Source: Candidatus Bilamarchaeum sp.
GTDB lineage: Archaea; Micrarchaeota; Micrarchaeia; Anstonellales; Bilamarchaeaceae
Assembly: GCA_035455205.1 (NCBI GenBank)
Contig: DATIFM010000015.1
Span: forward strand, 1,986 to 65,985
Length of the DNA: 64,000 nt
Direction: 5' to 3'
In this document: positions 31,640-60,998 of the stretch, piece after piece
Layout of the letters: every line of letters begins with the position of its first letter
Numbering within the stretch: position 1 is the first letter of the stretch
Made by a program: the position numbers and the translations under genes
Notes under the pieces: generated by a model
What the model was told of the DNA's origin: nothing
The model's input: only the letters and a program-made list of their open reading frames with translations
Databases searched by the model: none

Positions 31640-32026
31640 ATGCCTGACGTGGTGCATTTCGAGATACCTGCTGATGACGTGGAGAGGGCGAAGAAGTTCT
31701 ATTCATCGCTCTTCGGATGGAAGATTGCGAAATGGGACGGCCTCAAGAGCGCGAACGACTACTGGCTGATCGACACTTCGGCCAAGGCGCCCGTGAGCGG
31801 CGGGATAATCAAGAGGCAGGCCCCGGGGCACCCTTTCATGAACTATGTGGGCGTGGACTCCATCGACGAGTGCATGAACAAGGCTGTCGCCCTCGGGGGG
31901 AAAGTGGCGCTCCCGAAGCAAACAGTCCCTGGAGTGGGCGCTTTCGCGGCTTTCATCGACACCGAGAACAACGTCATAGGCCTCCATGAGAGGGAAGCGG
32001 GCTCGAGATTCGGGCCGAAGAAGTGA
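31640..32026 (+). CDS. VOC (glyoxalase fold) family protein, paralog of 7664..8065
   Basis: MPDVVHFEIPADDVERAKKFYSSLFGW...VGAFAAFIDTENNVIGLHE. I prefer ATG 31640 (GGTGG 5 nt upstream, and the N-terminus aligns with the paralog) over GTG 31631. Confidence 0.85.
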   Translation: MPDVVHFEIPADDVERAKKFYSSLFGWKIAKWDGLKSANDYWLIDTSAKAPVSGGIIKRQAPGHPFMNYVGVDSIDECMNKAVALGGKVALPKQTVPGVGAFAAFIDTENNVIGLHEREAGSRFGPKK

Positions 32027-33174
32027 TGGCAAAAACTACATCGCGGTTTTGCCACGCTTGCCTGAATATTATTCATTTTTCTCCTTATAGAACCACTTTA
32101 AAAAGCCCTTCGGGAAAATATGCGCTAATGGACGTTTCGGTGCGCGGGGCAATCAGGGATGCTATTTCAAAATCAGACAACCCGCTCGGGAAGGCCCGTG
32201 AGCTGCTGACAGAAGAATACAGGAAGACCGGCGGCGCGAGCGACATCCGCGTGCCGGTGTGCGCCGCGTTCGAGATTCGCCGCTCGATAGCGGTTCAGGC
32301 GGCATACGAGAGGATGTCCGGAACAGAGTGGCTCGGCGCGGGCCTGATTGGGCCGGAGATGGAAGACGCAGAGGAGATGCGCTGGTACCGGATGCAGGAT
32401 GGCGCCGGATTCTTCCTGAAGGGCGTGCCGGATGGCGTTTTAGATGCAAACGCGAAGGCCCGGCTCATCGCGCTTGACCAGGAGGCAGTCACCCCCGAGA
32501 GGTTTTTAGGCTCTTTCAGGGTCTATGCCCCTGGCGTGGGGTATGCGGTCACGGCAAGGAAAAGGCTGCTCGAGAACCAGGATTCGTTCCTTGTCCGCGG
32601 CGGGGGCAGGAAAATCCTTGCCGTCGCCGACGGATGCGGCTCCGAGAGGTTCTCGGCGCTTGCAAGCCACATGTGCGTCAGGGAGCTTGCCGCGCTGGAC
32701 GATGCCGGCGCAAAGGATGTCGTTTCCATAAGCGGGAAGGTAGCCGCGATGATTAACACGCGGGGCATCATCGGCCACTGCGGAGGCCTCGGGACGAGCA
32801 CCCTGCTTGCCGCTGTGAGCTCCGGCGGCGGAAAGCGCGTTTTCAAGGTCGGCGACAGCATAGGCTTCGCGGCATACGAAGGCGTGGTCGAGGAGCTTTC
32901 GAAGGACAGGGAGATGCGCAACGTCATCGGCTACCCGGGCCTCGGCGAGGAGAACGTAGAGTGCTATGCGGCAGACGGAGGCCAGATAGTCCTCACGAGC
33001 GACGGTGCGACGAACTACATCCCAGAGATAGACATCCTGCTTTCCAGGATAACAGCGATAACGACCGACGCGGTGATCGTGGCCGAAAGGCTGCTGCGCG
33101 CGGCCCTTGCAAACCAGGCTGCGTGGGGGCATTCGGACGACGTGACAATCGTGGTAGAGGAGAGCGCGGATTAA
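32026..33174 (+). CDS. PP2C-family (PPM) Ser/Thr phosphatase domain protein with an N-terminal extension of unknown function
   Basis: The C-terminal half reads NQDSFLV...ILAVADGCGSE...TLLAAV...VFKVGDSIGF...GQIVLTSDGATNYI...HSDDVTIVV. The start is uncertain: a TGATG overlap with VOC, or the later Met at 32128. Confidence 0.7.
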   Translation: MAKTTSRFCHACLNIIHFSPYRTTLKSPSGKYALMDVSVRGAIRDAISKSDNPLGKARELLTEEYRKTGGASDIRVPVCAAFEIRRSIAVQAAYERMSGTEWLGAGLIGPEMEDAEEMRWYRMQDGAGFFLKGVPDGVLDANAKARLIALDQEAVTPERFLGSFRVYAPGVGYAVTARKRLLENQDSFLVRGGGRKILAVADGCGSERFSALASHMCVRELAALDDAGAKDVVSISGKVAAMINTRGIIGHCGGLGTSTLLAAVSSGGGKRVFKVGDSIGFAAYEGVVEELSKDREMRNVIGYPGLGEENVECYAADGGQIVLTSDGATNYIPEIDILLSRITAITTDAVIVAERLLRAALANQAAWGHSDDVTIVVEESAD

Positions 33175-44486: not shown

Positions 44487-45404
44487 TCAGGAGCAGTTTG
44501 CCCCGTCGCAGGCCCACGGCTCGTAGCAGTAACCGTAATCGCCTTCCACGCAGCAGGACGCGCCGATGAAGCCGCAGTCCGTCCTCTCGATGAAGACTTC
44601 GGTGACGATGATGAATTCGTTGACCTGTGAAATCCCGATCCCTTCCTCGCCGAATGACGGCTCGAGGACGTTCGCGCGGTGGCCTGGGCTCGCAAGCCAG
44701 CCCTGAACGACTTTCGCCTCGAGCGCGCTTTCGCCCACCCAGTCGATTTTCGTCCAGTTCACACGAACCGCGGATTCTGCATATTTTTCCCGCGCGGCGA
44801 GGTCGGAAAGGACGCCCGCGGGGTCAGCGTATTCCTCGACTATCTGCGTTCCGCCTTCGCACGGCGCGTATGGCACGTCCGCGTATTTGAACGACCACTC
44901 GGGCGCCATGAAGATGTTCTCGCCCGACGCGTTGAAGTAGTATATGGAAGCGTTCATAAGGCGCCCCTCCTGATAGAGGCCTGTTTCGAAGCCCTCATGG
45001 TGGATGAAGATGTCCGGGCAGTATATCGAGGGGTCCGTGAGGTTCGCGTTCTCGCGTGCGAGGGCCTCGGAGTGCCCCCTCGCGACCTTCGCCACATCAT
45101 AGTTGTATTCGAGGGGCTCCAGGCCGTTTTTCAGGCGCTCGGCGTTTATCAATGCATGGATTCGCAGCTCCATCGCGGTCAGATTGTACTGCGGCCGGGG
45201 CGCGGGCTTTTCCGGCTGGGGGGAATTGATGCCGGGAATGGGCGGGATTTGAGGGGCCGGCCCTGAAGGCGGGGATGCGGGCTTTTGCGTTCCGGCGGAG
45301 GGGGCCGGGGCCTTTTGCGGGAACAATGCCGGGACTATGAAGAACACGGCAAGGAGCAGGAAAAACAACAGGACCAGAACAAGCATCCTCGCCATGAATA
45401 GCAA
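44487..45404 (-). CDS. Secreted CAP/SCP/PR1-like (YkwD-type) domain protein with Pro-rich linker and Cys-rich C-terminal tail
   Basis: An N-terminal TM/signal, a PAPS-rich linker, INAERLKNGLEPLEYNYDVAKVARGHSEALA and WLASPGHRANVL. Confidence 0.8.
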   Translation of the reverse strand: MLFMARMLVLVLLFFLLLAVFFIVPALFPQKAPAPSAGTQKPASPPSGPAPQIPPIPGINSPQPEKPAPRPQYNLTAMELRIHALINAERLKNGLEPLEYNYDVAKVARGHSEALARENANLTDPSIYCPDIFIHHEGFETGLYQEGRLMNASIYYFNASGENIFMAPEWSFKYADVPYAPCEGGTQIVEEYADPAGVLSDLAAREKYAESAVRVNWTKIDWVGESALEAKVVQGWLASPGHRANVLEPSFGEEGIGISQVNEFIIVTEVFIERTDCGFIGASCCVEGDYGYCYEPWACDGANCS

Positions 45405-46003: not shown

Positions 46004-46555
46004 ATGAAAAGGAAATCGGGCGGTGAACGCGGAACGGCGGGCGAATCACAGAAGCCTGCAGCTGGGTACCATCCGGAAACGGATACCATGCCTGCACAGG
46101 TCGGAAGGGAGGCAGTCGTCGCCATGCTCTCCAGGGTGGGAGCCTCGGCGAGCAAAGCCTCGAGCCCGGTGCCATCTGAGCTTGTCGAGCGGCTGGGCAT
46201 TCCGGAAAAACTGTTTTCCGAGGACAGGTGGACGTTCTCCTCCGACCCAGGAATTTCCGTGAAAGCAGTCGCGGAAGCCCTTTTCCGGGGCGCTCCATTG
46301 AATGGAAACCTTCCGGAGCTTCCAGGCTACGGGTTGTGCGTCTTCGGCCGCGGCTCGAGTTCGCTCCTGGTCCTGGTCGACAAGAGCAGAAAAATAGCGG
46401 TAATCGCTACGATAATGTCACATTCCGGGACGCCCGAATGGCAGTCTTTCCTGAAATCCATCGACGAAGGCCTGGAAAGGGCGAAGAAGCTGAGGGCAGA
46501 TGGCACGGCGTTCAAAGTAGTCGTCAACAATTCCTCGCTCACTACGCACATCTGA
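46004..46555 (+). CDS. Hypothetical protein, convergent with and abutting the giant gene's 3' end
   Basis: 183-aa ORF whose stop lies 3 nt from the giant ORF's stop. No family recognised, and the start is uncertain (Met-29 is possible). Confidence 0.5.
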   Translation: MKRKSGGERGTAGESQKPAAGYHPETDTMPAQVGREAVVAMLSRVGASASKASSPVPSELVERLGIPEKLFSEDRWTFSSDPGISVKAVAEALFRGAPLNGNLPELPGYGLCVFGRGSSSLLVLVDKSRKIAVIATIMSHSGTPEWQSFLKSIDEGLERAKKLRADGTAFKVVVNNSSLTTHI

Positions 46556-46558: not shown

Positions 46559-49500
46559 TCATTGAGCCGGCGGCTTCGGGATGAATATCTGCGGCTTTTC
46601 CGGCCACATGCCGGGCACATCGGTTTCTGTTGTGCCGAAGCCGGTGCGGAATATGTCCAGGATTTCCTGGAGCGCTTTCCTTTTCTCGCCCGGCTCCATC
46701 ACAAGCTTCGCAAGAGCTTCGAGCTCATTTGCATCCGCTATCGTCCTGCCTTCCGTGTTCTGGTACACCCTGGCCCTCCCCGCCTCGACGATTATGCCGC
46801 CTACGGGTGCATCCCGTTTGAGGAGGCCGAAGAGCTGTCCGTCATGGTTCTGCAGCTCTTTGGACATTGCGCCCTGGACCTGTGGCGGGTCGGGGAGGGT
46901 GGCGCCCCGGTAAGAGCGTATGAACTCGCCTGCGAGCTGGGTCTTGTCAACTGCCATTCCGCGGGACTCCAGAGCAGTATGGACCATCGTCACGAATTCC
47001 GTGCTTTTCATGGCGAAGTCGCGGTTGAAGAACCCCATCTCGGCTCCGGGAGGCGCCGGGAGTCCGGGCTTCGGCTGGACCATTCCGGCCACCCAGTCGG
47101 TATCGAACGGCTGGAACGTAATTTTCGTCCCATCCGGGGTTTCGACCAGGAAAACGGCGGTGTTCCTGACGGCCCGATCGGCCACGAGAGCGCGCCGTGA
47201 CATCTCATGGTAGGCCGACCAGGCCTGGAACAGCTGGGCCCGCCCTTCAGGAGTCGCAGCCATGTCGAAGAACTGCTTCACTGCCGGATAGCGCGGGTCA
47301 TTCGGGTTCGCCAAAATGCCAGATACCCTGGCCGGGTCCCTCAAAATCTCGCTGTCGAGCATGGCAACGCTCTTTACCGGATATTCGCCGGACTGCCCGT
47401 CGGGAAGCCGCAGCTTGAGGGACTTGCCCACGTATCCGTGCACGTCCTCGCTGAGGCTAAACGTCCCTTCGACGGGCCTTCCGTTTGCATCCGACAGGCC
47501 GGTCTGATATTTGAACGTATGGAGGCCGGCAGAGTAATCGAGCAGCCCCTGCGCGCCGCAAAGCCTGGACCCGAAGGCGGTCGGGCCGAGGTCCTCGTTT
47601 TTGAGGAATATCGTCCTGCCGTCGCTGAGCTTCATCATGTAGGCGCCGGCGTTGCCGCCAAGATGCGCAATGTCGGCTACATACGCGTTCTCGTATCCGG
47701 CGAGGGAACGCAGGTTGCCTTCGAGGTTGCCGCTCAGCACGAATTCGGCCAGCTGCTGGTGCTCCTGGAAGAATGCCCTCCTCTCTTTGGAAAGCCTGAG
47801 CCGGGCATCGGTCGCCATGCCGGGCGGCGCTCCGAGCATTTCGTCCATGACTCCGAATACGCCGTCCCTCTGGTACGCAGCTTTTAAAGCGTCCCGGAAT
47901 TCTCCCGGCTTTACCCCTCTTGCCTGGGCCATGGACGCTATTGTCGCGTGCGGTGGCTCGGCATCCAGTATAGCCCTGGCCCGGCCATCAAGGGTGAGAA
48001 GGGGGATGTCGTTGCTCATTCCCAGGGAACCCATGACCGCCCGCGTTTCTTCGATGCCGCCGCGGAGGTACGCCTCCATGAGCTGGTTCCGGATTTGCTC
48101 GGGGGGAACCCCCCGGGCGTCGGCGGCGGTCTTTATTATCTGCTCAAGAGTAGGGTTCCTCTGACCTTTGGCCAGGGCGACGAATGCAGAATCGAGCGAC
48201 TTGCCGTCTGCATCCCTCCTTGCCAGCCGGTCCAATTCTGCCTGCTCCCGTGCGGGGGCGGCGCTTTCCCACTCCTTTGCGAGCTTCTGGACCTCCGGGC
48301 TGCCGGCTTCGTATTTGAGCATTTCCTCGACCATGCGCCTGACCGCAGGCTCGAGCTTGTCCATCTCACCGGTGAACTCCTGGCCCCTGAGCCCTCGGAC
48401 TTTTTCTGAAATCGCAACAAGCTCCTTTGCGCTCGGCCCTTCCTGTGCAGGCGGGACGCCCGGAGCCTCGCGCCGTGTGATATCTTCGTCAGGCGAAGGC
48501 TGCTTGACTTCTCCCTTCCGGGGCTGCTCGTGCGGCGCTGCAGGGCCTTCCTTCTGGACCATGGCTGGCTTCTGCGGCTCATTCGCAGGAGGCTGCTTCG
48601 GCGTCCCCTCGGGCGGTTTATCTGCCATCGCGACAGGCTTCACCGGCCCTTCCTCGCCCTGTGATTTCTTCGGCTGGTGGAGCTCGTCCAAAACGGGCCG
48701 GGGTGCCTCGACATCAGGGGATGCGCTCGCCGCCTTGGCCCGGGGCTCGGTGGATTCGGGCATCGCCCGGATTACCATGCCCCGTGCAGTTTCAACGAGC
48801 GCTTTTCCGCCCTTGGTATCCGACACCCACTCTTCGAAGCCCTTGCCCTGCGCTTTCATCCGGAACATCTTCTGGCTGTCTTTAGTGGGCATCTGCCCTG
48901 GCTCGCCGGTGATGTGCCTGAGCGCTGCCTGCACGTCCTTCGGAAGCGCGTCGAACCGCGCCGCAACAGAGTCGTCTTTTTTCAGGCCGCTCTCGTGGAG
49001 ATAAAGGTCCCTCGCAAACAAGGCGAGGGATTTGGCATCGGAAAGGTTCATCTGCTTTGCCAGCTCGAAGCCGACATCCTTCTTCATCGGCTCGGGGATT
49101 TGGGGAGTCTCGCCCTTGATGATTGAGGCCGCGATGTCCGTCGGGGATTTCGCTTCCTGGGGCTGGACCGGCGCGGCATTCACCGGAGGCTCGACTTTCT
49201 GGGCAGGCGCTTCCTTCCCCTTGTATTTCACGAAGTCGAGCGCAGCCTGCTCGTGCGGCTGGAGCGGAGTGCCGGCCTTCTGCTTGTCGCGGGCGATTTT
49301 CGCGAGCCGCTCTATCTGGTCGGTCGGCTCACCCGGGCGGTACTGTTTCGTTATTTCCGGCTTCTGGAAATATGAGTCGAGCGTTTTTGACGCGCTGTCA
49401 AGTATCTCGCCCTTCCTGCGGCCCGCCTCTGTCCGGAAAGCCGATGCCCTCCGGTAGAGTTCGACTGCGTCCCCCTTCATGCTCGCGGGGAGCGCGTCGG

Positions 49501-52500
49501 CCCTGGCGTCCATCTCGATTGCGCGGCTCATGAGCGACTCAGGGCTCGCGCCTCCGATGCTCTCGAACCGGGCCTCCTTGGCGAATTTTGCGCGCTCATT
49601 CAGGGCTTCGGTTTCGAGCGCGATGTCGCGCTTCGCGTAGTTCTCGAAGCTCGCCCGCCCCCCTCCAATCCTGAAGTTGTCGTATCTCGTATTGAGGGAC
49701 GAGAAGCTCTCGAAATCGAGCGACGGCTCGACTTTCCGGGCGGTCTCGTAGTTGTTAAGGAGCTCCACCTGCCGCTCGTATCCTATCCCGCGCTTGCTGG
49801 CATAGCTGTTGAATGCCTTCTGCTCCGGCTTGGGAAGCTGGGCCAGGCCCTCGGTAACGGCCTTCTTGTAAATGCCCTCCTGCCACGCTGCGCGGTATTG
49901 CGCCCGGCTTTCGGGCGGAGTGCCGAATATGAGCATCTCTCCTATCTGGAGGGCCCTGCTCCGGTAGACGGGCAGTCCGGTCCTGCTAACCTGCGCGCCA
50001 CGCAGCGCATGGAGGCCGGGCTGGACGCCGCTCTGGATTCCCGTGAGTATTCCTTCGGCGACCGCATACCATCCGGAAACCTGGCCGGATGATGCGGCCT
50101 GGCTAAGCTGGTAGATGGAAACGCCGCCCTGGACTGCGCCCCCGGCTATCATGACGCGGCCGAGCCACGTGGAAGTCAGCTCGAGGGCGGTCGGCGCGAG
50201 CGCGCTCTCGGCCTCGAGGCCGAGCTGGGCCATGCGCGCGGCATTCTGCGCCTGGGCAAGCTCGCCCACGACCGGCGCTGCGGCCGCGCCTATCGCCATC
50301 CCGACCTGGAAAATCATGAACGCCTGCTCGCCAGCTGACATCCCGCTGAAGTCACCGCCGCACGCCTCATAGTATTCCGCGGCGCCGATGAAGCCCTCGG
50401 TCGCGGCGATGGCGCCCGCGAGGTATCCCGTGGCCCCGCCGGTTACAGGCGAGAGCGCGAAGAGCACGCCGTAGCCGGCCATCTTGAGCACGCTCTTTCC
50501 GAGGTTCGCGGCGTCCTGCCAGTCCTGCTTGGACCGCGTCCATTTGCCGGTCTCGTAGTCCGGGTCCCAGAGCTTGCCGTTTATCTCCTGGAACGGCATG
50601 CCCTGCTTGTATACCTGCTCGGACTCGGCGATGACCTCGCTCAGGTACCGCCCTCCGGGGTTCTTGACGATGATTTCCGCGGAGCGGTGGAAGTCCCGCG
50701 AGCGCGTGCCGACGCGCGCAAGGTAATGCTGCTCGTCGGACTCCCACACCCCCACGCCCGCCTTCATCACTATGTCGTTCTCGAGGTTCGTGAACTGGGC
50801 GTAGGCTTCGGATATCCTCCTGAATTCCCCGGGCGTCATCTGGAACTTCTCGAGCGTTCCGTCGTCCTTCTTCCTGAAGCCGCTCAGCCAGAGCTGCATC
50901 TCGGTCTTCATCTGGGCATAGTCCTCGGCATTCCACTTCTTCTGGAGCTCGTTGTCGAGGTCGGACTTGGCGAAGATGATGTTGTAGGCCTCAAGGTTAA
51001 TCTCGTAATCGTTCTTCAGCATGGTCCTGACGCGGTCCGAATCGTTCATCCACCCGTATCCGTCGCGCGTGAGGCTCTTTGCCATCGCAATCGACTCGCC
51101 TGAAAGCCGGTAGAGCTTCAGCTTGTCGTTCTCGTCCTGCGTTATCGCCGCCCGGTTCTGGAGCACTTTCGCGGTCTGGAGGCGCTTCGACACGTACGGC
51201 TCGATTGAGGTGTCCCATTCCATGTTGTTCTTCCGCGCGACGAGGCCGGATGAGAGGGCGAGGAGCTGGACTACCTGGTCGTCGCTGAACTCCTCGGTCC
51301 CCCCGGCCCGCTGGACCGCGGCGAAAAGGAGCTCGGGGCGGTTCGTGAGGACATGGCTCCAGAGCGCCCTGACCTTCTGCTCGTACGAAGGGTCGTTCAC
51401 AGCGCCCTTGGCGTCCTCGAGCATCTTCTTTATCTCCTTCACTTCCGGGCTGTTCGTGTCGGGTATTTTCGAGAGGAGGGAAATCATGCCGTCCTCGTTG
51501 AGCGTGAGCTTGCCCGCCGTGCGCTCTATCGAGTCCCTGCTCTTTAGCGCGAGGCGGGAGGCCGCCCCGTTCTGCTTGGCCCGGCCGAGGAGCCCGCCCT
51601 TCAGTTCATCCACTGCAGGCTCGAGCTGGCGCTTTGCCTTGCCTGCCGCTATCCGCTCGTCGAGGTTCCTTTTCTTGTCGGCCCCGCTCGCCGAGTCGTC
51701 GAGCAGTCCCGGCTCCTCCGGATACCATTCCTTGGTCTTGTACGCGCGCCGCGTGTACTCGTACTCGGCATAGTCGAAGGCCACGCGCTCGTTGTCCGCC
51801 TCCTGCATGCCGACTTTCGTGTAAGAGACGTCCTGCGCGTCCTGGAGCGCGAACTCCGCGCTGGCGATGTCGCCCTTTGCCGCAAGGCCCCTCGCGTCCA
51901 CCACTTTCTGCACGAGCGCATCGCGGTCGAAATAGATGAGGTCTCCGTCCACTATCTTGTCGGCCATGCTCTTGCCGCCAGGAGGGGTGTAGAAGTTGGA
52001 CTGAAGGGCGTCGAGCATCATCTCGCGGCCGAAGTCGCCTCCCTTTCCCTTGTCCATCTTGTCGAGCTTGTCGTAAAAGTCCTGCCGCTTCGCTTCGGGG
52101 AGGTGGGCTATCAGCTGCCGCAGGAGCAGCTCGCTCGGGTATGGCCAGCCGCCTTTGTTCACGGGGAACCCGCCGAGCCCGCGCTCGTCGCTTTTCGGGG
52201 CCGCGAGCCGGAGCTGGCGGCTCAGGCGGAATTCGTCTATGTTCAGCGAGGCGATGAGCCCGCCGCTTTCCATGTCGAATTTGGCCTGCCGGCTCAAGGC
52301 GCCGGCCGCCGCGAAGTTCTCGCCCCAGTAGAGGCCCACGACCTGCTGGAATTTCTTCTCGTTCGCGAGCGGGTCGTACGGTGTCTTGGCCTCCCCGTCC
52401 TCGTAATAGACCATCTTGATGCCGTCAGGGTGGTTCACATCCGTCGTCCCGCTCGCGAGGCTGAAGTAGTATTTCTGGAGCTTGTCGAATTTCTCCGGGT

Positions 52501-55500
52501 CCTCGCTTTCGGCTATCTTCTTGGCCTCGTCCTTCACGTTCTGCGCGGTCTGCGGGTCCAGGTCCGCTATCTTGCCTATCAGCTCCAGGGACTTGTTGAG
52601 GTTCCCTTTCTGCAGGGTCTCCTTGGCCGCGGCTATCCCTGCGTCCCTCGTCCTCATTATGTCCTGCTGCAGTTTCACGGCCTGCTTCCCGGCCTTACCC
52701 GCGCCCGCGGCCTGCTCGAACAATGCAGACTCGCGCTCAGGCGTGAGCGCGCCTTCCTTCCGGTTGCCGAGCCGGTCTGCGTCGTAGCCCAGCCCTATGG
52801 CGAGGTCGGTCTTTATCGCGATGTTGAGCTGGAACCTGCCGCGCTCGCGGTGTATCGTGTTCACTTTCCTGACGCTCTCGTCCATGGTGCCGAGGTCGGA
52901 GGCAAGCGAGCCGGCCGCGAGGCTGAGCTTGTCCGAGTTCTGCCTCGCCTGCGCCGCCTGCGCATAGAGAGCGCCGGCCTGCTCCGAGAGCTTCCCCGCC
53001 TCATCAGCCTTTCCGGCGTCCGCCGCCGCCTTCGCCTGCGCTGCAAGGGAATCGGCCTGGTCCGAGAGCTTTTCGGCCTTCTCGAGCTCTGATGCGGCCT
53101 TCGCGAGCATCTCCCTGCCTTTTGCTATCGCGTCAGTCGCGAAGCCGCGGTCCACTTCCGCCGCCTTAGAGTCATAATAATCGGCGAACGCATTCCTCCC
53201 GGCCTTGCGGTTCTGGTCCGCAAGCGCCTTGAAGCGCTTGCTTTCGCCCTCCCACTGCGCATCTATTCCTTTTCCGAGGAGGTTGTCGAAATCCGTGGCG
53301 TGGGACGCTATGAAGGCGATTTTCGTGAAGGACGCGGCATCCTCCTGCAGTTTTGCAAATGAATCGCCCATCGAATCCTTCAGCGGCTTCTTGGAGAGGA
53401 CTGCCACGGCGGCAGGCGCGCTCACATCCTCAGGCTTCTTTTCGGCAATCCTTTTCGCGTCCTTCTTGTAGTCGCCGAGGTATTTCTCGATTGAAGCCAT
53501 CGCGTCCGCGCGCTGTTTCTTCGAGTCCTTGTCCAGCGCGGACTCCCGCGATGAGGCCAGGGATGAATATGCGAGGGCGAGCTGGCGGAGCTCCTGCGCG
53601 CCGGTCATATCGCCGTTAGCGGCCGCAACCTCGGCAAGGTCGAAGTACGCCCTCGCGTTCGCGAGCTGGCCGCGGTCGCCGATTTTCTTCTCGACTTCGG
53701 CGCGCGCGGAAATATCGCCGAGTATGAACATGCCGGCGCCGGGCGGGATTTTTCCCTCGTCGCACGCCTTCGCTGTTTCTGCGATGCGCGAAAGCTCGCC
53801 GGGGTTCGCAAGCCCGGCCTGCGCGGCCTGCAGGAAGAGCATGCCCTTGTCGGAGTCGCCCGCGATGAACGCCTTCGCGCCCTTTTCGAAAAGCCCGGCA
53901 AGCTCGGGCTTCGGATTTTTTCCTGCCTTGAGCATAAGGTCCCGGAGCGCCATGAGCCCCTTGATGCGCTCGCGCTCGGCGACGATCGCGGCGGACTTTG
54001 CCGCCCTTGCGATAGCCAGCTCCATCGCGTCCGCGTCGGAGATTCCGGGGTTCTCCGCCTTTGCCTCCGCTGCAAGCAGGTCTATCTGCTTTTTGAACTC
54101 CGGGTCCTTCAGCATGTCGCGGACCTGGCCGAGATACTGCTCCGCCTTCTTTTCGTCCGAGAGGTCCTCGCCCCTTGCAATCATGCCCCGGACGCGGTCG
54201 AGCTCCTTTGAAATGTCATTGAGCGGGCCTGCCATCGCGCTTCCCTTCGGAAGCTCGGATGCCATCTTCGCCGCGATTACTGACTGGTCGTTTATCTGGA
54301 TGAAAGTCTGCACGTCCGGCATCGCAGAATCCGGGTCCTTGGCCACCCGCGCCGAGAGCGACTCCAAATCCGCGCGCTGGGATTCGTCGGGCGCCAAGAG
54401 ATATTTTTCGGCAAGGAACTTCTGCGTGCCTGAAATCGAGGGGTCGAGCCCGGCCAGCGTAGCCGAGAGCGCGCGGTTGTATATCGCGACGGCGCCCTTC
54501 CTGCGCTCCTCCGGGAGGCGCGCCCCGGCCGAGCCGCCGAGGAAATCGTTCATGCTTTTGACTACGTCGAGGGCGGCCCTCGCGCGCGAAAGGGATTCCA
54601 AATCGTCGCCGGGCTTTATCTGCGAGAGTATTTCCTGCGTGCTCTCATCCGGGGCCTTGGCCTTTGCGAGCTTCTTTTCGAGCGACTGCTTTATCACCCC
54701 GATGAGCTTTGCGCAGGCCTCCTTTGCCTTGGCAGGGTCCTTCATCGCCGAAACCTGCTGCATGATGTCCCTGCGGTATGAGCCGGCCTCGAAATCGAAT
54801 GCCGCATTCGCCCGCAGCTCGCTTGCCGCGAACATCAGGGTGCGGTACTGCTCGGTTTCGCCCCCCTCCAGCTTGTCGAGCGCGATTCCGTAGAGCTCGG
54901 TGAGGTTTTTTTTCAATTCAAAATTGTCCGTTTTCTGGAACTCCTCGGACATGCGCCGCATCTCGCGCGAGCGGGCGATAAGCGCGCCAACATCGCCTGC
55001 CTTGTCGAAATCCTTGAGCGCGGCGCCTATGTCGCCAAGGAGCTTCTCTGCCCTGCCCTGGAGTTCCTTGGGGAGCGATGGCAGGGATTCTAGGAGAGCC
55101 GACTGCTCGTACGTCAGGTCTTCGCGTGCCTGCTCCTTCATCTTCACGAGCGCCTCGGAATACTGCTTCAGGGCCTCCAGCGCCTGCTCTTCCGGCGCGG
55201 AGACGAGCTCGTTCGCGAACCCGAGCGCCTTGAGCGCGCCGTTCAAATTGTCTGCCTTGAGGGCGGTGAGCGCCTTGCCCGTGACAGAGAGAACGCCGCT
55301 CCGGAGCGTCTCGTTCTCCTTCGGGAGGACCTTGCTCCTGATGAAGCCGAAAATGCCGAGGGCCTGGCTCGCCTTTCCGAGCAGGCCCAGGTCCGCATTC
55401 CCATCCCGGAGCGGCTTGAAGAGCGAGGCGAACGTGTCGGCGAGCTCCGGGCTTACTTTGCGGAGGATTCCCTCTGCCGCCTCCGCATCCTTCAGGAAGC

Positions 55501-57169
55501 GCGCGGAGAGCCGGGACCTCACCTCGTCGAGGCCGATCTTCCCTTTCGAAAGGCCGTCGCTAAGCTCCGAAAGCAGCTTCCGGTATTCCGGGTCTGCGGC
55601 CATCAGGTGTTCGCCTGCGATGAATTTCAGGAGGCTGGCAGCCTCGGACTTCGGGTCCTTCATCGCCGAATCCACTGCGTTCGCGATGAGTCCGGCGGAT
55701 TCCTCGCGCGCCTGCTTCTCCTTGTCTGTCTTTGCCGGCAGTTTCAGCAATGCGGCGAGCGAGCCTTTCAGGTACTGGAGGGTTTCCCCTGCGCCCCTGA
55801 GGTATTCCGCGGTAATGCCTTCCCCGCTCTTCAGCCTGTCCTGTATGGACTTGAGAAGCTTTCCAGCGGCCTCTCGGAGCGGCTTGCTTCCTGTCTCTTC
55901 GATTCCCTTCAGCATGCCCTGGAGCGACGACTCCAGGCCCTGCAGGGCCTTCATCTTGTCGGATTTGGCTTTTGCAATCGCGTCGAGCGCCTTCCCGAGG
56001 TCTTTCTGGAACGAATTGATTGCTTCGGTGAGCTTTTTCCTGTCCAGGAGGCCGGCCGAGACCATCTTGGAGGTGGAAACCAGCTTGTTCAGGAGCGTCT
56101 TGTCCTTCAATAAGAGCTCCTTGTTCCGGAGGAATGTGACGCCGAGCTGGAGGAGCTGCTGGCCCCTTTCGCGGAGAGCGGCGGTCTTGGATTCGAGCAG
56201 TTTTCCCGCCCCCTTCAACGCGGCGACGAGCTCGGGGGGCGCCCCGGCCTCGGTGAGCGCAAGCTCGAGCGCGGATGCCACGAGCTTCTCCGCCTTCTTC
56301 TCCAGCTCGGCCATCTCCTTTTCCTTCTCGTCCTTGTCCTTCTTTGAATCCGTTATTTTCGCGAGCGCGCCCGCGAGGTCCCCGAGGAGCTTGTCCATCT
56401 GGTCCTTCATCTTCGTGCCCACGATTTCCGAGGTCATGACGCTCTGGAGCATCGCGGAGACGCTCTGGAGGGCCGCGACGTCGCTCACCCTCGCGCTCGC
56501 AATAGTGAAATTCTGCTGGAGGGACTGGAATGCCGAGGTCGCCTCGGACGCGCTCATCTGCACGGATGGGTCGGTGAGCCGCCCTACGGTCGCGAGCAGG
56601 CTTCTCCTTGCCTGCTCGTTGCCGGGGGCGTTGTAAACCTGGGGATTGTCCAATAAGTTCTTCGCGCCGAACACCGCTGAGGCCACCCTTTCCGTCCCCC
56701 CTTCGGTGCCTATCATGCCGAACCCGCGCTGGAGGTTGTCGCTCAGCGCCTTTGCCTCGGCCGAGCCGTCCTGCTGGGCCTTGTATTGCGCCATCACGCC
56801 GAAAACAAGCACGATTGCTCCGCCCTGCGCCTGCTGGAGCAGGCTCGCGTCGCCGGTCTGGAGCGCCCTTGTTGCCATGTCCGCTATCCGGTCGACCTGC
56901 TGGCTGTAATCGTATTCGCCCATCCGCGCGCCCTTGGCCTTGCTCGCCCAGTCCAGTATCGAGCGTGCCTGCCCGACCTGCGTCTCGTTAAGGCCGGAGT
57001 CGAGGCGGTCGGACTGGCGCAATGCCTGCCCTACCCGGGAATCCGTATCCCTCTCGACCTGCCGCAGGTCCTGCTGCTGGACAGGCGGGGGCCCGTGCCT
57101 CGGCGGGACGTGCATCTGGGGCGGGTTCGCCTCGACCTGGTCCGGGGCCTGCTTCTGCTTATCGGCCAT
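46559..57169 (-). CDS. Giant protein (3,536 aa): helical N-terminal ~2,200 aa, 3-4 Gly/Ala-rich TM segments, Pro-rich linkers, C-terminal PI3K/PI4K-like kinase-fold candidate
   Basis: An uninterrupted ORF with G/C-rich third positions throughout. GGGAGGG lies 6 nt before the ATG. The TM cluster is encoded at about 50030-50510, and the kinase-like motifs (GGNAGAY, IFLKNEDL, ADRAVRN, QPFDTD) at about 47090-47700. Confidence 0.9.
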   Translation of the reverse strand: MADKQKQAPDQVEANPPQMHVPPRHGPPPVQQQDLRQVERDTDSRVGQALRQSDRLDSGLNETQVGQARSILDWASKAKGARMGEYDYSQQVDRIADMATRALQTGDASLLQQAQGGAIVLVFGVMAQYKAQQDGSAEAKALSDNLQRGFGMIGTEGGTERVASAVFGAKNLLDNPQVYNAPGNEQARRSLLATVGRLTDPSVQMSASEATSAFQSLQQNFTIASARVSDVAALQSVSAMLQSVMTSEIVGTKMKDQMDKLLGDLAGALAKITDSKKDKDEKEKEMAELEKKAEKLVASALELALTEAGAPPELVAALKGAGKLLESKTAALRERGQQLLQLGVTFLRNKELLLKDKTLLNKLVSTSKMVSAGLLDRKKLTEAINSFQKDLGKALDAIAKAKSDKMKALQGLESSLQGMLKGIEETGSKPLREAAGKLLKSIQDRLKSGEGITAEYLRGAGETLQYLKGSLAALLKLPAKTDKEKQAREESAGLIANAVDSAMKDPKSEAASLLKFIAGEHLMAADPEYRKLLSELSDGLSKGKIGLDEVRSRLSARFLKDAEAAEGILRKVSPELADTFASLFKPLRDGNADLGLLGKASQALGIFGFIRSKVLPKENETLRSGVLSVTGKALTALKADNLNGALKALGFANELVSAPEEQALEALKQYSEALVKMKEQAREDLTYEQSALLESLPSLPKELQGRAEKLLGDIGAALKDFDKAGDVGALIARSREMRRMSEEFQKTDNFELKKNLTELYGIALDKLEGGETEQYRTLMFAASELRANAAFDFEAGSYRRDIMQQVSAMKDPAKAKEACAKLIGVIKQSLEKKLAKAKAPDESTQEILSQIKPGDDLESLSRARAALDVVKSMNDFLGGSAGARLPEERRKGAVAIYNRALSATLAGLDPSISGTQKFLAEKYLLAPDESQRADLESLSARVAKDPDSAMPDVQTFIQINDQSVIAAKMASELPKGSAMAGPLNDISKELDRVRGMIARGEDLSDEKKAEQYLGQVRDMLKDPEFKKQIDLLAAEAKAENPGISDADAMELAIARAAKSAAIVAERERIKGLMALRDLMLKAGKNPKPELAGLFEKGAKAFIAGDSDKGMLFLQAAQAGLANPGELSRIAETAKACDEGKIPPGAGMFILGDISARAEVEKKIGDRGQLANARAYFDLAEVAAANGDMTGAQELRQLALAYSSLASSRESALDKDSKKQRADAMASIEKYLGDYKKDAKRIAEKKPEDVSAPAAVAVLSKKPLKDSMGDSFAKLQEDAASFTKIAFIASHATDFDNLLGKGIDAQWEGESKRFKALADQNRKAGRNAFADYYDSKAAEVDRGFATDAIAKGREMLAKAASELEKAEKLSDQADSLAAQAKAAADAGKADEAGKLSEQAGALYAQAAQARQNSDKLSLAAGSLASDLGTMDESVRKVNTIHRERGRFQLNIAIKTDLAIGLGYDADRLGNRKEGALTPERESALFEQAAGAGKAGKQAVKLQQDIMRTRDAGIAAAKETLQKGNLNKSLELIGKIADLDPQTAQNVKDEAKKIAESEDPEKFDKLQKYYFSLASGTTDVNHPDGIKMVYYEDGEAKTPYDPLANEKKFQQVVGLYWGENFAAAGALSRQAKFDMESGGLIASLNIDEFRLSRQLRLAAPKSDERGLGGFPVNKGGWPYPSELLLRQLIAHLPEAKRQDFYDKLDKMDKGKGGDFGREMMLDALQSNFYTPPGGKSMADKIVDGDLIYFDRDALVQKVVDARGLAAKGDIASAEFALQDAQDVSYTKVGMQEADNERVAFDYAEYEYTRRAYKTKEWYPEEPGLLDDSASGADKKRNLDERIAAGKAKRQLEPAVDELKGGLLGRAKQNGAASRLALKSRDSIERTAGKLTLNEDGMISLLSKIPDTNSPEVKEIKKMLEDAKGAVNDPSYEQKVRALWSHVLTNRPELLFAAVQRAGGTEEFSDDQVVQLLALSSGLVARKNNMEWDTSIEPYVSKRLQTAKVLQNRAAITQDENDKLKLYRLSGESIAMAKSLTRDGYGWMNDSDRVRTMLKNDYEINLEAYNIIFAKSDLDNELQKKWNAEDYAQMKTEMQLWLSGFRKKDDGTLEKFQMTPGEFRRISEAYAQFTNLENDIVMKAGVGVWESDEQHYLARVGTRSRDFHRSAEIIVKNPGGRYLSEVIAESEQVYKQGMPFQEINGKLWDPDYETGKWTRSKQDWQDAANLGKSVLKMAGYGVLFALSPVTGGATGYLAGAIAATEGFIGAAEYYEACGGDFSGMSAGEQAFMIFQVGMAIGAAAAPVVGELAQAQNAARMAQLGLEAESALAPTALELTSTWLGRVMIAGGAVQGGVSIYQLSQAASSGQVSGWYAVAEGILTGIQSGVQPGLHALRGAQVSRTGLPVYRSRALQIGEMLIFGTPPESRAQYRAAWQEGIYKKAVTEGLAQLPKPEQKAFNSYASKRGIGYERQVELLNNYETARKVEPSLDFESFSSLNTRYDNFRIGGGRASFENYAKRDIALETEALNERAKFAKEARFESIGGASPESLMSRAIEMDARADALPASMKGDAVELYRRASAFRTEAGRRKGEILDSASKTLDSYFQKPEITKQYRPGEPTDQIERLAKIARDKQKAGTPLQPHEQAALDFVKYKGKEAPAQKVEPPVNAAPVQPQEAKSPTDIAASIIKGETPQIPEPMKKDVGFELAKQMNLSDAKSLALFARDLYLHESGLKKDDSVAARFDALPKDVQAALRHITGEPGQMPTKDSQKMFRMKAQGKGFEEWVSDTKGGKALVETARGMVIRAMPESTEPRAKAASASPDVEAPRPVLDELHQPKKSQGEEGPVKPVAMADKPPEGTPKQPPANEPQKPAMVQKEGPAAPHEQPRKGEVKQPSPDEDITRREAPGVPPAQEGPSAKELVAISEKVRGLRGQEFTGEMDKLEPAVRRMVEEMLKYEAGSPEVQKLAKEWESAAPAREQAELDRLARRDADGKSLDSAFVALAKGQRNPTLEQIIKTAADARGVPPEQIRNQLMEAYLRGGIEETRAVMGSLGMSNDIPLLTLDGRARAILDAEPPHATIASMAQARGVKPGEFRDALKAAYQRDGVFGVMDEMLGAPPGMATDARLRLSKERRAFFQEHQQLAEFVLSGNLEGNLRSLAGYENAYVADIAHLGGNAGAYMMKLSDGRTIFLKNEDLGPTAFGSRLCGAQGLLDYSAGLHTFKYQTGLSDANGRPVEGTFSLSEDVHGYVGKSLKLRLPDGQSGEYPVKSVAMLDSEILRDPARVSGILANPNDPRYPAVKQFFDMAATPEGRAQLFQAWSAYHEMSRRALVADRAVRNTAVFLVETPDGTKITFQPFDTDWVAGMVQPKPGLPAPPGAEMGFFNRDFAMKSTEFVTMVHTALESRGMAVDKTQLAGEFIRSYRGATLPDPPQVQGAMSKELQNHDGQLFGLLKRDAPVGGIIVEAGRARVYQNTEGRTIADANELEALAKLVMEPGEKRKALQEILDIFRTGFGTTETDVPGMWPEKPQIFIPKPPAQ

Positions 57170-57461
57170 CGTAACCCTCCCGGTACTCGCGGCAGAGCTT
57201 CACGAACATTTCGAGGCGCGTTTTCCGCATCTCGAACGGGTCGCCGTTGTCCCTCGAGCGGAGCATCAGCGTGAGCCACGCGGCGAGCGCGTCCCTGAAT
57301 TTCAAATAGCGGGCGAACTTCTCCTTCAGCTCCTCGGGCTTGTCCTTCGACAGTTCCCATGAAGCGAGGGCGCTTTCCAGAGCCGAGAGTGTGCTGCTCG
57401 CTATGCGGATTGTCTCCCGCTCCTGCTCGGTTATGCTGGTTTCGCCTATCTTTTCAGCCAC
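57159..57461 (-). CDS. Small helical protein overlapping the giant gene's start (homolog of 7386..7667)
   Basis: 100 aa with a GTG start about 25 nt downstream of a TTAATAAAA box (leaderless-type). It overlaps the giant ORF by 11 nt and aligns with the 93-aa ORF at 7386..7667. Confidence 0.65.
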   Translation of the reverse strand: MAEKIGETSITEQERETIRIASSTLSALESALASWELSKDKPEELKEKFARYLKFRDALAAWLTLMLRSRDNGDPFEMRKTRLEMFVKLCREYREGYDGR

Positions 57462-57540
57462 GGAAAGGATTCTTCAGCAGGTTTTATTAATCGTCAAGGA
57501 GCCACGCTGGAATTATTAAGCTGAATAAAGGATTCCGGTC

Positions 57541-58722
57541 ATGCCAGAATTCGCTTTAAGCTATTCGCTCGGGGCCGCTTCCGGGGAAGGAAAGTGCGCC
57601 ATCGAGGATGAGTGCATTTCCATCATGCCTTCGATGGGCGAGCCGCTCCGGATTCCGTTCAGGGACATGCTGGGGGTTTCGCCTGCCGACTACAAGATAG
57701 CCATAACGCTTCCAAAAAACACGCTCATCCTATCCGGCCTCGGATTGAAATACGAGGATTTCGTCAGGGAGCTCTTCCATGCGCGAAACGAATTGACGCT
57801 GAAGGACATGCTGATGGAGGATGCCAAAGTGATTGGCAGGGCAAGATGCCCGTTTTCCTATGTTTCAGAAGGGAAGGAATCGAAAGGCGAGTGCGAAGCG
57901 AGGGTTTACGAGACGTCGCTCGTGATTCTTCCGGACAGCGGCGAGCTCGCGAGAATTCCGTTCTGCGAGGTCTCGCTCTTCAACCAGGAGGGGTATTCGC
58001 TCGTCATCTCCACCGAATACGGGGAGAAGCTAACGCTTTCTGCCCTTGGAAGGCAGATGGACCCGCTCAGGAAAGCTGTTTCCGATGCGATGAATTCGCT
58101 CTCGCTAAAGACGCAGAAAATCCTGAAGGACGCCGCGCCAGAAGCCGGCCCGGACGAGATTGCCGCAGCCGCGCGCATGATGCGGGACGGGCGGGCTGCG
58201 CGGAGGAAATCGCTCGATGGAATTTCGCCGGCGATATGGGCCGGGCTACGGAAAAAAATCGAGGTTGCGGGCCTGAAGGACGAATACGCGTTTTTGGAAT
58301 CCATATCCGAGCCCGCGGAGATGTGCATCGGGGTGAAGCGGAGCCTCATGGGCGACATGGAAGGCGAATATATCTGGTTCCTTGCGCCCCTGAAGGGAAA
58401 AAACGTCATCGCGATGGAAGCCACATCCGAGGAAAGCGGGCGCGCGACATACCTTTTCAGGGTGATGCCCGAGAAGGAGTTCCGGGGCGAATTGTCTGAG
58501 GAAAACATCCTTGCCGGCATGAGGAGAATAAACAGGTGCATGATTGCGATTAACTTCAGGCGCGAGCCGGTTTACCTCGACGAAAAATCCCTCGGCGACC
58601 CGAAATACGCCTCTTACCGGTTTTCCATAGCGAGGCTCCCGCAACTGCGCGAGCTGCGCTCGCTTTTCATCGGGCGCGCGATACACAACGAGGGCTGGAA
58701 GCGGAACGTCGCGGGGCAATAG
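57541..58722 (+). CDS. Hypothetical protein with an internal N-terminal duplication (PH/GRAM-like?)
   Basis: 393 aa. CISIMPSMGEPLRIPFRDMLGVSPADYKIAITLPKNTLILSGLG repeats as SLVILPDSGELARIPFCEVSLFNQEGYSLVISTEYGEKLTLSALG. Confidence 0.65.
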   Translation: MPEFALSYSLGAASGEGKCAIEDECISIMPSMGEPLRIPFRDMLGVSPADYKIAITLPKNTLILSGLGLKYEDFVRELFHARNELTLKDMLMEDAKVIGRARCPFSYVSEGKESKGECEARVYETSLVILPDSGELARIPFCEVSLFNQEGYSLVISTEYGEKLTLSALGRQMDPLRKAVSDAMNSLSLKTQKILKDAAPEAGPDEIAAAARMMRDGRAARRKSLDGISPAIWAGLRKKIEVAGLKDEYAFLESISEPAEMCIGVKRSLMGDMEGEYIWFLAPLKGKNVIAMEATSEESGRATYLFRVMPEKEFRGELSEENILAGMRRINRCMIAINFRREPVYLDEKSLGDPKYASYRFSIARLPQLRELRSLFIGRAIHNEGWKRNVAGQ

Positions 58723-60318: not shown

Positions 60319-60998
60319 TTTTTTCGCCTGAAAATCAGGTAAATCGCCAAAAGGGCCAGCAGGACGACTCCGGCATAGAGAAGGAGGTTGTCCTCCTGCG
60401 CCGGAGCCTTCGGGGCCTGCGATAGGTATGGAGTCGGGATAGGCTTCTGCTCCGGGGGCACGGGGGCCGTGGAGTTGGGGCCCAGGCCGCACTTGTCCGG
60501 GCAGGTGAGCGGCGTTTCGCCGATGCGCTCGTCGCATCCGGGGGCGCTCGAGCATTCCACCGCGACTTCAAGGCTGTTCGAGAATGCCTTCCCGCCCGGG
60601 AAGAGAACCTCGGTGGGGCCGAACGAGAGAATCCCAACTGTTTTCGGCTTCACACGGTAAACGAGGCTTTGCGATTCCCCGGGCCCGAGTGAAAGCTCCC
60701 AGGAAAGGCGCGGAGGCTGGGCGGCAAGCGAATCCCCGATGACGTCCGTGTAGTTCGGCAGCGGGTCCACGGGCTCGACATTGCCCAGGTATTCGTTGAC
60801 CGTGACTCTGACCTCCGAGCTGCCATTGTTCCTCAGGGTAATCGTAACGGGAAATTCTTCCGTGAGATTTACCGAGAGGGGCGCGTATTTCATGACGTCC
60901 AGATTCCCGGCGAATTTCTGCTCCGGATAGCTCACGCTCGAGTCCTGCGCGTGCGCAAGGCAAAGGAGAATGAAAACTAAGGCGAGCTGCTTCAGCAT
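60315..60998 (-). CDS. Secreted protein with a beta-sandwich (CARDB/DUF11-like?) domain, Pro-rich stalk and C-terminal TM anchor
   Basis: The start is at MLKQLALVFILLCLAHA (signal). It contains VTITLRNNGSSEVRVTVNEYLG and the C-terminal LLLYAGVVLLALLAIYLIFRRKN. Confidence 0.7.
   Translation of the reverse strand: MLKQLALVFILLCLAHAQDSSVSYPEQKFAGNLDVMKYAPLSVNLTEEFPVTITLRNNGSSEVRVTVNEYLGNVEPVDPLPNYTDVIGDSLAAQPPRLSWELSLGPGESQSLVYRVKPKTVGILSFGPTEVLFPGGKAFSNSLEVAVECSSAPGCDERIGETPLTCPDKCGLGPNSTAPVPPEQKPIPTPYLSQAPKAPAQEDNLLLYAGVVLLALLAIYLIFRRKN

Follow-up and report, generated by a model that had tools for sequence, protein, structure and literature searches.

It is a long-standing question how archaea of the DPANN group attach to their hosts, take up nutrients from them and manipulate them, and almost no molecular players are known beyond the giant proteins of the nanohaloarchaea. 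In these giants, known as SPEARE, a Sec signal peptide is combined with Ig-like and beta-propeller ectodomains and with a VirB4/TraG-like ATPase (PMC10266531). Here we describe a giant gene in a 64,000-nucleotide stretch of DNA from Candidatus Bilamarchaeum sp. (Micrarchaeota; GenBank assembly GCA_035455205.1, contig DATIFM010000015.1, positions 1,986 to 65,985 of the forward strand). The whole stretch will be referred to as the window, and position 1 is its first letter. The gene is located at 46559..57169 on the minus strand and encodes a protein of 3,536 amino acid residues. It is the center of a conserved three-gene cassette, with a small, translationally coupled open reading frame (ORF) upstream and a fast-evolving gene for a protein of ~180 residues, in convergent orientation, downstream. 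The giant and the SPEARE proteins are alike in being lineage-specific, poorly conserved giants of DPANN symbionts, with a proposed role in host interaction (PMC10266531). The giant has none of the SPEARE features listed above and no sequence similarity to SPEARE proteins, and membership in that group was rejected. Modular, effector-like giants of symbionts are a known kind of protein; the core of this one has no known relative.

The reading that we favor, with a confidence somewhat short of even, is that the three genes make up a modular effector or interface system at the contact of the symbiont with another cell, most likely its host, with a chaperone-like partner. It is favored because the C-terminal enzyme-like modules (heads) are of cytoplasmic type and cofactor-dependent, and are swapped between close relatives, with a fast-evolving small gene alongside. 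Moreover, a signal peptide and extracellular-type domains are absent, and the small partner precedes both the giant and a stand-alone cargo.

The giant gene and its two partners

The giant ORF is uninterrupted from its ATG start through its stop codon, which is included in the coordinates. A stop-free run of 3,536 codons has a chance probability of ~1e-51 at the base composition of the window. The G+C content of third codon positions (GC3) is 0.73–0.87 in each 300-codon block, and that of second positions is 0.36–0.48. The ratio of nonsynonymous to synonymous substitution rates (dN/dS) is 0.22–0.28 throughout the core, indicating purifying selection. The long ORFs inside the gene, at 53529..54893(+) and 54900..56636(+), are antisense shadow frames by their composition (22–23% Ser, 13–17% Ala and 8–9% Arg). 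A preliminary description of this DNA had recognized the open minus-strand frame, its G/C-rich third positions and the Ser/Ala/Arg-rich antisense artefacts, and all three observations stand.

The sequence comes from a metagenome assembly and, at 90% identity, no other protein clusters with the exact one, as might be expected of a chimera from misassembly, a repeat that collapsed or an open frame without coding function. However, an identical protein is encoded, in the same order of genes, by a Logan contig of 21.9 kb that was assembled separately. No tandem or internal repeats able to collapse in assembly were found within the giant, the internal-repeat search giving compositional similarity only. 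Collinear relatives span every junction, with orthologues from other assemblies covering residues 1–2837 and other relatives covering residues 2699–3534. Together with the length of the open frame, the codon bias throughout and the dN/dS of ~0.25, these observations effectively refute an artefact, and they answer the concern over misassembly or collapse that had been raised before. Therefore, 46559..57169(-) is a real gene under selection in a Candidatus Micrarchaeota (DPANN) archaeon. The small archaeal genome proposed earlier as the source agrees with the SufB protein of the window, whose best matches, in two metagenome-assembled genomes (MAGs) of Candidatus Micrarchaeota, have 88% and 82% identity, and whose next matches are bacterial (60–66%).

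The upstream partner is a helical ORF of 100 residues with a GTG start (57159..57461, minus strand). It overlaps the ATG region of the giant by 11 nucleotides, ATGGCCGATAA, and its TAA stop lies within the first codons of the giant. The Shine-Dalgarno sequence GGGAGGG reported previously is present, and is spaced 5 nucleotides from the ATG at 57169 rather than 6. A TATA-like box, TTAATAAA, is located at 57483..57490(-), 22–29 nucleotides upstream of the GTG, which suggests a leaderless or short-leader bicistronic transcript of the small ORF and the giant.

With the ORFs that occupy its position in two orthologous loci (L082 and L083), the small ORF has 54–56% identity and a dN/dS of ~0.2. A profile built from five copies (the A4 family) finds 78 homologues of 79–151 residues, and every one with a named source is from Candidatus Micrarchaeota or Micrarchaeia. 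For all three homologues that were looked up, a giant starts 4 nucleotides later (7,058, 4,655 and 6,046 residues). The arrangement of small ORF followed by giant is present in eight of the eight contexts examined (the window, L082, L083, two in L086, L092, L093 and L094). In L086, the homologues are upstream of the genes for giants of 5,879 and 7,685 residues, and the start of a third gene (6,069 residues) is beyond the end of the locus. The helical ORF overlapping the giant had been noticed in the preliminary description, which proposed a search of related genomes for the same pair; it is a genuine partner.

A second TATA-like box, TTATTAAG, is found ~20–28 nucleotides before the ATG of the divergent gene at 57541..58722(+), back to back with TTAATAAA (window 57483..57520). 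Both boxes are within a divergent intergenic region of 79 nucleotides, and their arrangement suggests leaderless divergent transcripts. The divergent gene itself (393 residues) was considered as part of the cassette and rejected, as it is absent from L082 and L083.

The downstream partner is an ORF of 183 residues at 46004..46555 on the plus strand, ending 3 nucleotides from the stop codon of the giant. It is also called as a gene on the Logan contig. Its homologues are located, in convergent orientation, 3' of a giant or kinase-domain gene in eight other loci, often as two to four copies: L082, L083, L085, L086 (four copies), L087 (two copies), L088, L089 and L091. One of them sits behind a protein of 804 residues that has the kinase-like module only. 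In L086, two to three such genes follow the genes for the 6,069- and 5,879-residue giants, and the end of the 7,685-residue gene is beyond the locus. Across the orthologous loci the downstream gene is 28–30% identical, compared to 55–66% for the core of the giant, and its dN/dS is 0.4–0.6, compared to 0.22–0.28. Neither partner has a match in Pfam, and a PADLOC search with the three cassette proteins gave no match to a model.

The gene order extends beyond the cassette. The window is syntenic with L083 (JGI metagenome, encoding the orthologue P0009) for Zn-ribbon genes, the small ORF, the giant, the convergent small ORF, a CAP-domain protein, a hydrolase, a HAD protein and a metallo-beta-lactamase. 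L082 (a Candidatus Micrarchaeota MAG, encoding the orthologue P0018) has the central genes and PolB in common with the window. In L082 (796..8467, NCBI GCA_040758235.1), the cassette adjoins SIR2_2, GmrSD_N, two DNA methyltransferases, an RHH/PIN pair and a GGDEF protein. These surroundings resemble a defence or variable island, and an RHH/PIN pair and a GGDEF gene also adjoin the cassette of L083.

The window contains a second, divergent copy of the small ORF (93 residues, 7386..7667, minus strand; E 5e-8 in hmmsearch with the small-ORF profile). It overlaps by 34 nucleotides the start of a gene for a protein of 365 residues (6322..7419, minus strand) with an HExxH motif (ILHETLHY), whose homologue is a module within the giant P0006 (3,693 residues; phmmer E 1e-21). 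Neither the 93-residue paralogue nor the HExxH protein has a match in Pfam. From their layout and homology, the two genes appear to be a stand-alone pair of small partner and cargo, a miniature cassette. A stand-alone module with a small partner of its own fits the idea that the small protein has a whole class of cargo.

The giant family, its core and its exchanged modules

An exhaustive HMMER phmmer search with residues 2337–3536, against 1.84 billion cluster representatives, finds 53 representative relatives at E ≤ 1e-3 and 28 at E ≤ 1e-30, most of them with 3,000–7,300 residues. The giant is therefore not unassignable, as it had first seemed. Word-index homology searches with the C-terminal 607 residues and with the middle 1,000 residues gave zero matches and missed the query itself; these are false negatives and carry no weight. 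The same kind of search succeeded with a 100-residue profile, and its negatives are unreliable for long, compositionally biased queries. Exact-peptide pattern scans found no match to the giant in GTDB genomes, JGI metagenomes or viral contigs, which excludes very close relatives only.

The N-terminal core of ~2,600 residues is collinear from end to end in six relatives (P0018, P0009, P0041, P0013, P0014 and P0020), and more weakly in about nine others. Residues 1–2681 align with residues 1–2692 of P0009, residues 23–2837 with P0018, and residues 5–2599 with P0041. The identity of the core to the syntenic orthologues is 66% for P0018 and 55% for P0009. A C-terminal module of ~400 residues is present in nearly all relatives, sometimes twice and often at an internal position, and is also found in proteins of 290–840 residues.

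A Pfam search of 12 relatives (47,000 residues) finds one PIN and one Metallophos domain only, and the family is thus all but invisible to the profile libraries of today. Ig, PKD and propeller-type extracellular domains are absent by Pfam from the giant and its relatives, and so is a signal peptide. Other module matches among relatives are PolyA_pol and HopA1. The former is in the 7,685-residue protein of L086 (1..37640; NCBI GCA_046331685.1, JAXLQI010000002.1, Candidatus Micrarchaeia), where three giants of 6,069, 5,879 and 7,685 residues are found within 38 kb, with ~59 kb of coding sequence. This amounts to several percent of the genome, at an assumed size of ~1 Mb. The latter is a precomputed Pfam match in the 6,046-residue member of L094 (8295..18290; ENA ERZ27283517), located after a small-ORF homologue. 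HopA1 is a type III effector family of Pseudomonas.

Judging from these comparisons, the giant belongs, as one of the short members, to a family of modular Micrarchaeota giants with 3,000–7,700 residues and variable, enzyme-like C-terminal modules. The family is restricted to Micrarchaeota as far as names are available for the sources. No description of it was found in the searchable literature, which is incomplete and yielded only nanohaloarchaeal and bacterial giants, and the giant-protein surveys within it do not mention the family; the family is apparently undescribed so far.

Close relatives have swapped their C-terminal modules. The giant and its syntenic orthologues cease to be homologous at residue 2681 for P0009 and at residue 2837 for P0018, within linkers rich in Pro, Gln and Lys. 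Beyond this break, P0009 and P0018 have modules of one type (type B) and the giant of the window has another (type A). Residues ~2690–2850 are matched elsewhere along the chains of P0007, P0010, P0017, P0019, P0021 and P0029. The GC3 is 0.79–0.87 for residues 1–2700 (48700..57169) and 0.73–0.75 for residues 2701–3536 (46559..48700). The drop coincides with the end of homology to the syntenic orthologues, and is consistent with a more recent arrival of the type A head.

A self-directed conflict or defence module could also account for the variable, toxin-like heads (PIN, kinase-like, nucleotidyltransferase), for the fast evolution of the partner gene, and for the location of the L082 cassette beside SIR2, GmrSD, methyltransferases and a PIN/RHH pair. 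The giant would then be an anti-virus or abortive-infection sensor-effector, or part of a toxin-antitoxin-like system, with the heads as executioners and the ~180-residue protein as the antidote. We regard this as improbable. PADLOC is negative for all three proteins, and in the window the cassette is flanked by housekeeping or surface-protein genes, syntenic with L083. In addition, a rod of 2,600 residues under purifying selection is hard to explain in an intracellular sensor, and 10–60 kb of a genome of roughly 1 Mb would be an extreme cost.

The giant begins with a polar N-terminus rich in Pro and Gln (residues 1–60, 56990..57169), without a signal peptide, as previously noted; by eye, the N-termini of relatives have a similar P-rich stretch. 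The following residues, 61–2215 (50525..56989), are non-repetitive and rich in Ala, Lys, Glu and Leu, and would form an all-alpha rod or bundle. This part is collinear in the six relatives named above. An AlphaFold2 (AF2) model of residues 1480–2460, from 10 sequences, has a mean predicted local distance difference test score (pLDDT) of 74.7, with values mostly of 80–95 up to residue ~2210, and shows only long helices in bundles. Residues 61–1479 are inferred to be helical from their composition (40–50% Ala, Lys, Glu and Leu, with few Pro and Gly). The core consists of a helical region, a middle richer in aromatic residues, a Gly/Ala-rich segment, and ~250 residues beyond.

The Gly/Ala-rich segment has four marginally hydrophobic helices (residues 2216–2390, 50000..50524) and is kept in 10 family members. 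The preliminary description had counted three to four hydrophobic segments and called the protein membrane-inserting. The segments are conserved, but their hydrophobicity is marginal, with a single 19-residue window above 1.4 on the Kyte-Doolittle scale (peak 1.9). The best Hessa-type sum over 19 residues is +3.8 in the giant, compared to –4.7 to +1.3 for the real transmembrane or signal segments of neighboring genes, and the pLDDT of residues 2216–2390 is below 50. Classical co-translational membrane insertion is unlikely because of this weak hydrophobicity and the low AF2 confidence. The segment may instead insert into a membrane conditionally, as translocating toxins do, or be buried in a helical domain.

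The conserved helical end of the family core follows (residues 2391–2640, 49250..49999), and is matched at an equal relative position in the same six relatives. The next region (residues 2641–2915, 48425..49249), where orthologue homology ends, contains the two Pro/Gln/Lys-rich linkers (residues ~2641–2690 and ~2791–2915), at the positions first described, with a helical module of ~100 residues (~2691–2790) between them. Last before the C-terminal domain is a helical pre-kinase region (residues 2916–3124, 47798..48424) with two short repeats, ARGV.P..(I/F)R..L..AY.R.G. This unit also precedes the kinase-like domain in P0006, P0007, P0008, P0011 and P0012. DUF5817_CT has weak matches to the pre-kinase region (E 9e-4, below the cutoff) and to residues 2437–2471 (E 3e-4).

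Searches with the whole giant and nine overlapping segments gave only sub-threshold noise, from DUF5817_CT and TMP_3 in Pfam and likewise in PADLOC, PHROGs and PDB sequences. Residues 61–2215 have no match in Pfam, PHROG or PDB. Foldseek with the model of residues 1480–2460 finds nothing significant, and the best matches are talin/vinculin rods (E 0.07–1). Assignments of the core as talin-like, HEAT-like or similar to a toxin-delivery region were rejected on this result.

The C-terminal kinase-like domain

The globular C-terminal domain of ~380 residues that had been read from the translation is located at residues 3125–3510 (46640..47797, minus strand). The AF2 models agree with a mostly helical protein that ends in such a domain. 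With an alignment of 40 copies of the type A domain (A1), AF2 gives a model with a pLDDT of 93.5 and a predicted TM-score of 0.91. With Foldseek against PDB, the top 50 matches are all kinases or kinase complexes, led by ATM and VPS34 (E 6e-4 to 2e-3) and followed by Src, Lck and PINK1. Against BFVD, the top match is a protein with the catalytic domain of phosphatidylinositol 3-/4-kinases (PI3K/PI4K) from Halorubrum sodomense tailed virus 2 (E 1.6e-4, probability 0.96), and most of the other top matches are kinases. PI3K/PI4K-like proteins are thus first in both databases.

In the motif string HLGGNAGAY...IFLK...ADRAVRN...FQPFDTD, a Gly-rich loop is followed by a Lys at the end of a strand, then by a D-x4-N catalytic loop and, after a beta-hairpin, by the Asp of a metal site. 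The key residues are Gly3172 and Gly3175 of the Gly-rich loop, Lys3190, D3331-R-A-V-R-N3336 and D3356-T-D3358. Only seven columns of A1 are invariant, namely three Gly residues, D3331, N3336, D3356 and D3358. R3332 is conserved in 38 of the 40 copies, and K3190 in 33. The type B module at the C-terminus of P0009 and P0018 is a paralogue of type A (hhalign probability 99.1%, E 5e-19), and its D-x-H-x-x-N and IDTDD motifs align with D-R-x-x-R-N and IDTD of type A. The sequence D-R-H-x-x-N is the catalytic-loop signature of PI3K/PI4K.

From the model and these motifs, the domain is probably a very divergent protein-kinase-like domain, nearest to the PI3K/PI4K type and outside any curated family. 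It is described in this way because the TM-scores are low and sequence profiles link it to no known kinase. The earlier statement that the protein has no motif that can be placed in any family does not hold for this domain, where the catalytic-type residues are intact in a protein-kinase-like fold. The domain would add a very divergent archaeal clade of PI3K/PI4K-like kinases that is missed by current profile libraries.

The best BFVD fold matches of the head include haloarchaeal tailed-virus proteins and large phage portal/ART fusion proteins. Together with the long helices and Gly/Ala-rich hydrophobic stretches, which recall tape-measure proteins, and a very weak TMP_3 match (E 0.028), they could point to a relic of a virus or mobile element, such as a giant protein of an integrated archaeal virus that is tape-measure-like or injected from the capsid. 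This origin is very improbable. No PHROG matches the giant, and 2.9 million viral contigs contain no relative of the protein or of the kinase profile. Genes for capsid, portal, terminase or integrase were not found nearby. The locus is chromosomal and syntenic across species, with the GC content and GC3 of the host genome. Membership among phage tape-measure proteins was rejected, as the TMP_3 match has 14.6 bits against a cutoff of 41 and the PHROG, viral-contig and phage-neighbor searches were negative.

A second alternative places the protein inside the Micrarchaeon, as a rod-like cytoskeletal or organizing scaffold with an architecture like that of talin/vinculin rods or of giant kinases of the titin or PI3K-related kinase (PIKK) type. 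Its head would signal, or would modify the lipids or proteins of the cell itself. The giant may be peripheral on the membrane of its own cell, with the small ORF as a folding chaperone and the downstream protein as a regulator or substrate. Several observations suit such a scaffold. A signal peptide and secretion genes are absent, all recognizable modules are enzymes of cytoplasmic type, and the hydrophobic segment falls short of a true transmembrane anchor. The uniform purifying selection on the core resembles that of a structural protein, the only fold resemblance of the core, although non-significant, is to talin/vinculin rods, and a long helical N-terminus before a C-terminal PI3K-like kinase recalls the PIKKs. 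On the other hand, swaps of the C-terminal enzyme between close orthologues are unexpected of a housekeeping scaffold. Three divergent copies per locus, modules of PIN and HopA1 type, and a fast-evolving, multi-copy small gene are unexpected as well, and FAT/FATC and HEAT signatures were not found. We consider an intracellular scaffold-kinase unlikely, but the most serious competitor of an effector or interface system.

Function of the cassette and comparison with known systems

If the cassette is an effector or interface system, the small protein would serve the polar, Pro-rich N-terminus of the giant as its dedicated chaperone or adaptor. The rod-like core and the Gly/Ala-rich segment would provide reach and conditional association with a membrane. 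The kinase-like head would modify, in an ATP-dependent manner, a lipid or protein target in a cytoplasm, and the ~180-residue downstream protein may be a cognate inhibitor, an immunity factor or a regulator of the C-terminal module. A role in host interaction or as a delivered effector, first suggested from the translation, has some support from the module swaps, the PIN, metallophosphatase and HopA1 matches and the fast-evolving downstream gene, and can be put forward as an inference only.

Several results weigh against this assignment. No secretion or transfer machinery, and no signal or cleavage site, was found in the window or the related loci. The kinase call comes from fold and motifs only, with Foldseek TM-scores of 0.2–0.35 and E values of ~1e-3 to 1e-4. 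Pfam (E ≤ 1) gives no kinase sequence-profile match for residues 3101–3536 or for five relatives, and neither does PDB with the A1 profile. The hydrophobic segments are too weak for classical transmembrane helices and may be just buried helices. The downstream gene is convergent, while immunity genes are usually co-directional. Moreover, its divergence does not track the type of C-terminal module, in a comparison of only three orthologous loci that carries little information, as all pairs are ~30% identical.

A bolder form of the effector reading, which we hold to be doubtful, is that the giants are a self-contained and lineage-specific delivery or interface apparatus of a new type. The rod and the Gly/Ala-rich segment would bridge or penetrate the host envelope without a secretion machine, the ~100-residue adaptor would load the protein, and interchangeable heads (PI3K/PI4K-like kinases, nucleases, phosphatases and HopA1-like modules) would be placed in the cytoplasm or membrane of the host. 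If true, it would be an archaeal counterpart of the multi-effector toxins, with components unrelated to theirs, and one of the main factors that set the specificity of DPANN archaea for their hosts.

Whichever reading is correct, an orphan mega-ORF has become a defined, searchable family with three conserved components and a confidently modelled head. The A1 and A4 profiles, residues D3331, N3336 and D3356, and two putative partner interactions make the question of its function testable. Cultured co-cultures of Micrarchaeota with Thermoplasmatales exist, and localization and targets could be examined in them if they carry the cassette.

The other genes of the window include form III RuBisCO, SufBCS, PolB and glutamate dehydrogenase. 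The form III RuBisCO, the cluster of SufS, a probable SufC and SufB, and a PP2C-type phosphatase are located at 18072..19409(-), 22757..26176 and 32023..33174(+), respectively. Outside the Micrarchaeota, SufB is nearest to proteins of Chloroflexota and Actinomycetota (60–66%), which hints at an old horizontal transfer. Some way off on either side, the cassette has a secreted or surface protein. One has 799 residues, with fn3, PKD and purple-acid-phosphatase-N-like regions and a Cys-rich C-terminus (60992..63391, minus strand). The other is a CAP-domain protein with an N-terminal signal or transmembrane segment (44487..45404, minus strand), and its gene is syntenic in L083. No tRNA or Rfam RNA genes were found in the window. 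By Pfam, the flanks have no phage, secretion-system or mobile-element genes, in agreement with the preliminary description.

It had been asked whether most of the protein belongs to a described family of the tape-measure, MARTX/RTX or SMC-like type. It belongs to none of these, while its head is kinase-like and it does have relatives. MARTX/RTX membership was rejected, as RTX nonapeptide repeats, Pfam matches to the cysteine protease and internal repeats are absent. SMC-like membership was rejected as well, since Pfam finds no SMC ATPase heads or hinge.

The core is similar to talin/vinculin rods in being a chain of long-helix bundles, but with E values of 0.07–1 and TM-scores of ~0.1 there is no evidence of homology. 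The head shares with PI3K/PI4K kinases (VPS34, ATM) the bilobal fold, the Gly-rich loop, the beta-3 Lys, the D-R-x-x-x-N catalytic loop and the Asp after a beta-hairpin, and several paralogues read D-R-H-x-x-N or D-x-H-x-x-N. In contrast to these kinases, it is not matched by PF00454 or a PDB profile, with TM-scores of 0.2–0.35, and it has an invariant D-x-D in place of DFG, an extra beta-hairpin insert and a C-terminal subdomain of ~130 residues.

The PIKKs (ATM, DNA-PKcs and mTOR) have a similar overall plan, with more than 3,000 residues, a helical N-terminus and a PI3K-like head near the C-terminus, and ATM is among the best fold matches. However, there are no Pfam matches to FAT, FATC or HEAT in the giant, and the model of residues 1480–2460 matches no HEAT solenoid. 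The kinase-like module is also mobile here, as some relatives have it in duplicate or at an internal position, alongside enzymes to which it is unrelated, and the giant has a Gly/Ala-rich segment and an operon partner. PIKK membership was rejected on the absence of FAT/FATC/HEAT, and the resemblance is one of architecture, not evidence of homology.

The pair of small ORF and giant is laid out as in the chaperone-effector pairs of specialized secretion systems, such as those with class I chaperones of type III secretion, with a helical protein of ~100 residues directly upstream of, and coupled to, a large partner, and with a second, unrelated cargo. The likeness is from gene layout alone, as no secretion apparatus was found here and there is no sequence or profile similarity.

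The last comparison is with the polymorphic toxin or modular effector systems (Zhang, Aravind et al. 2012, PMC3482391), including multi-effector toxins of MARTX type. By Pfam, the giant and 12 relatives have no secretion or trafficking module (signal peptide, type 5, 6 or 7 secretion system, RHS), and the giant lacks RTX repeats and a processing protease. Neither sequence nor fold links its core to any protein outside the family, it is encoded by a DPANN archaeon, the 3' gene is convergent, and an obligatory upstream partner of ~100 residues is outside the classical scheme. On the other hand, the giants have the conserved long N-terminus of these systems, C-terminal modules that differ between close homologues, and breaks that fall at linkers. 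The heads of relatives are of PIN, phosphoesterase, nucleotidyltransferase and HopA1 type, and there is a small, fast-evolving and often multi-copy 3' gene. The weakly hydrophobic, Gly/Ala-rich central segment is a further likeness, to translocating toxins. By analogy, therefore, and although a trafficking domain is missing, the cassette appears most like the polymorphic toxin and multi-effector systems.

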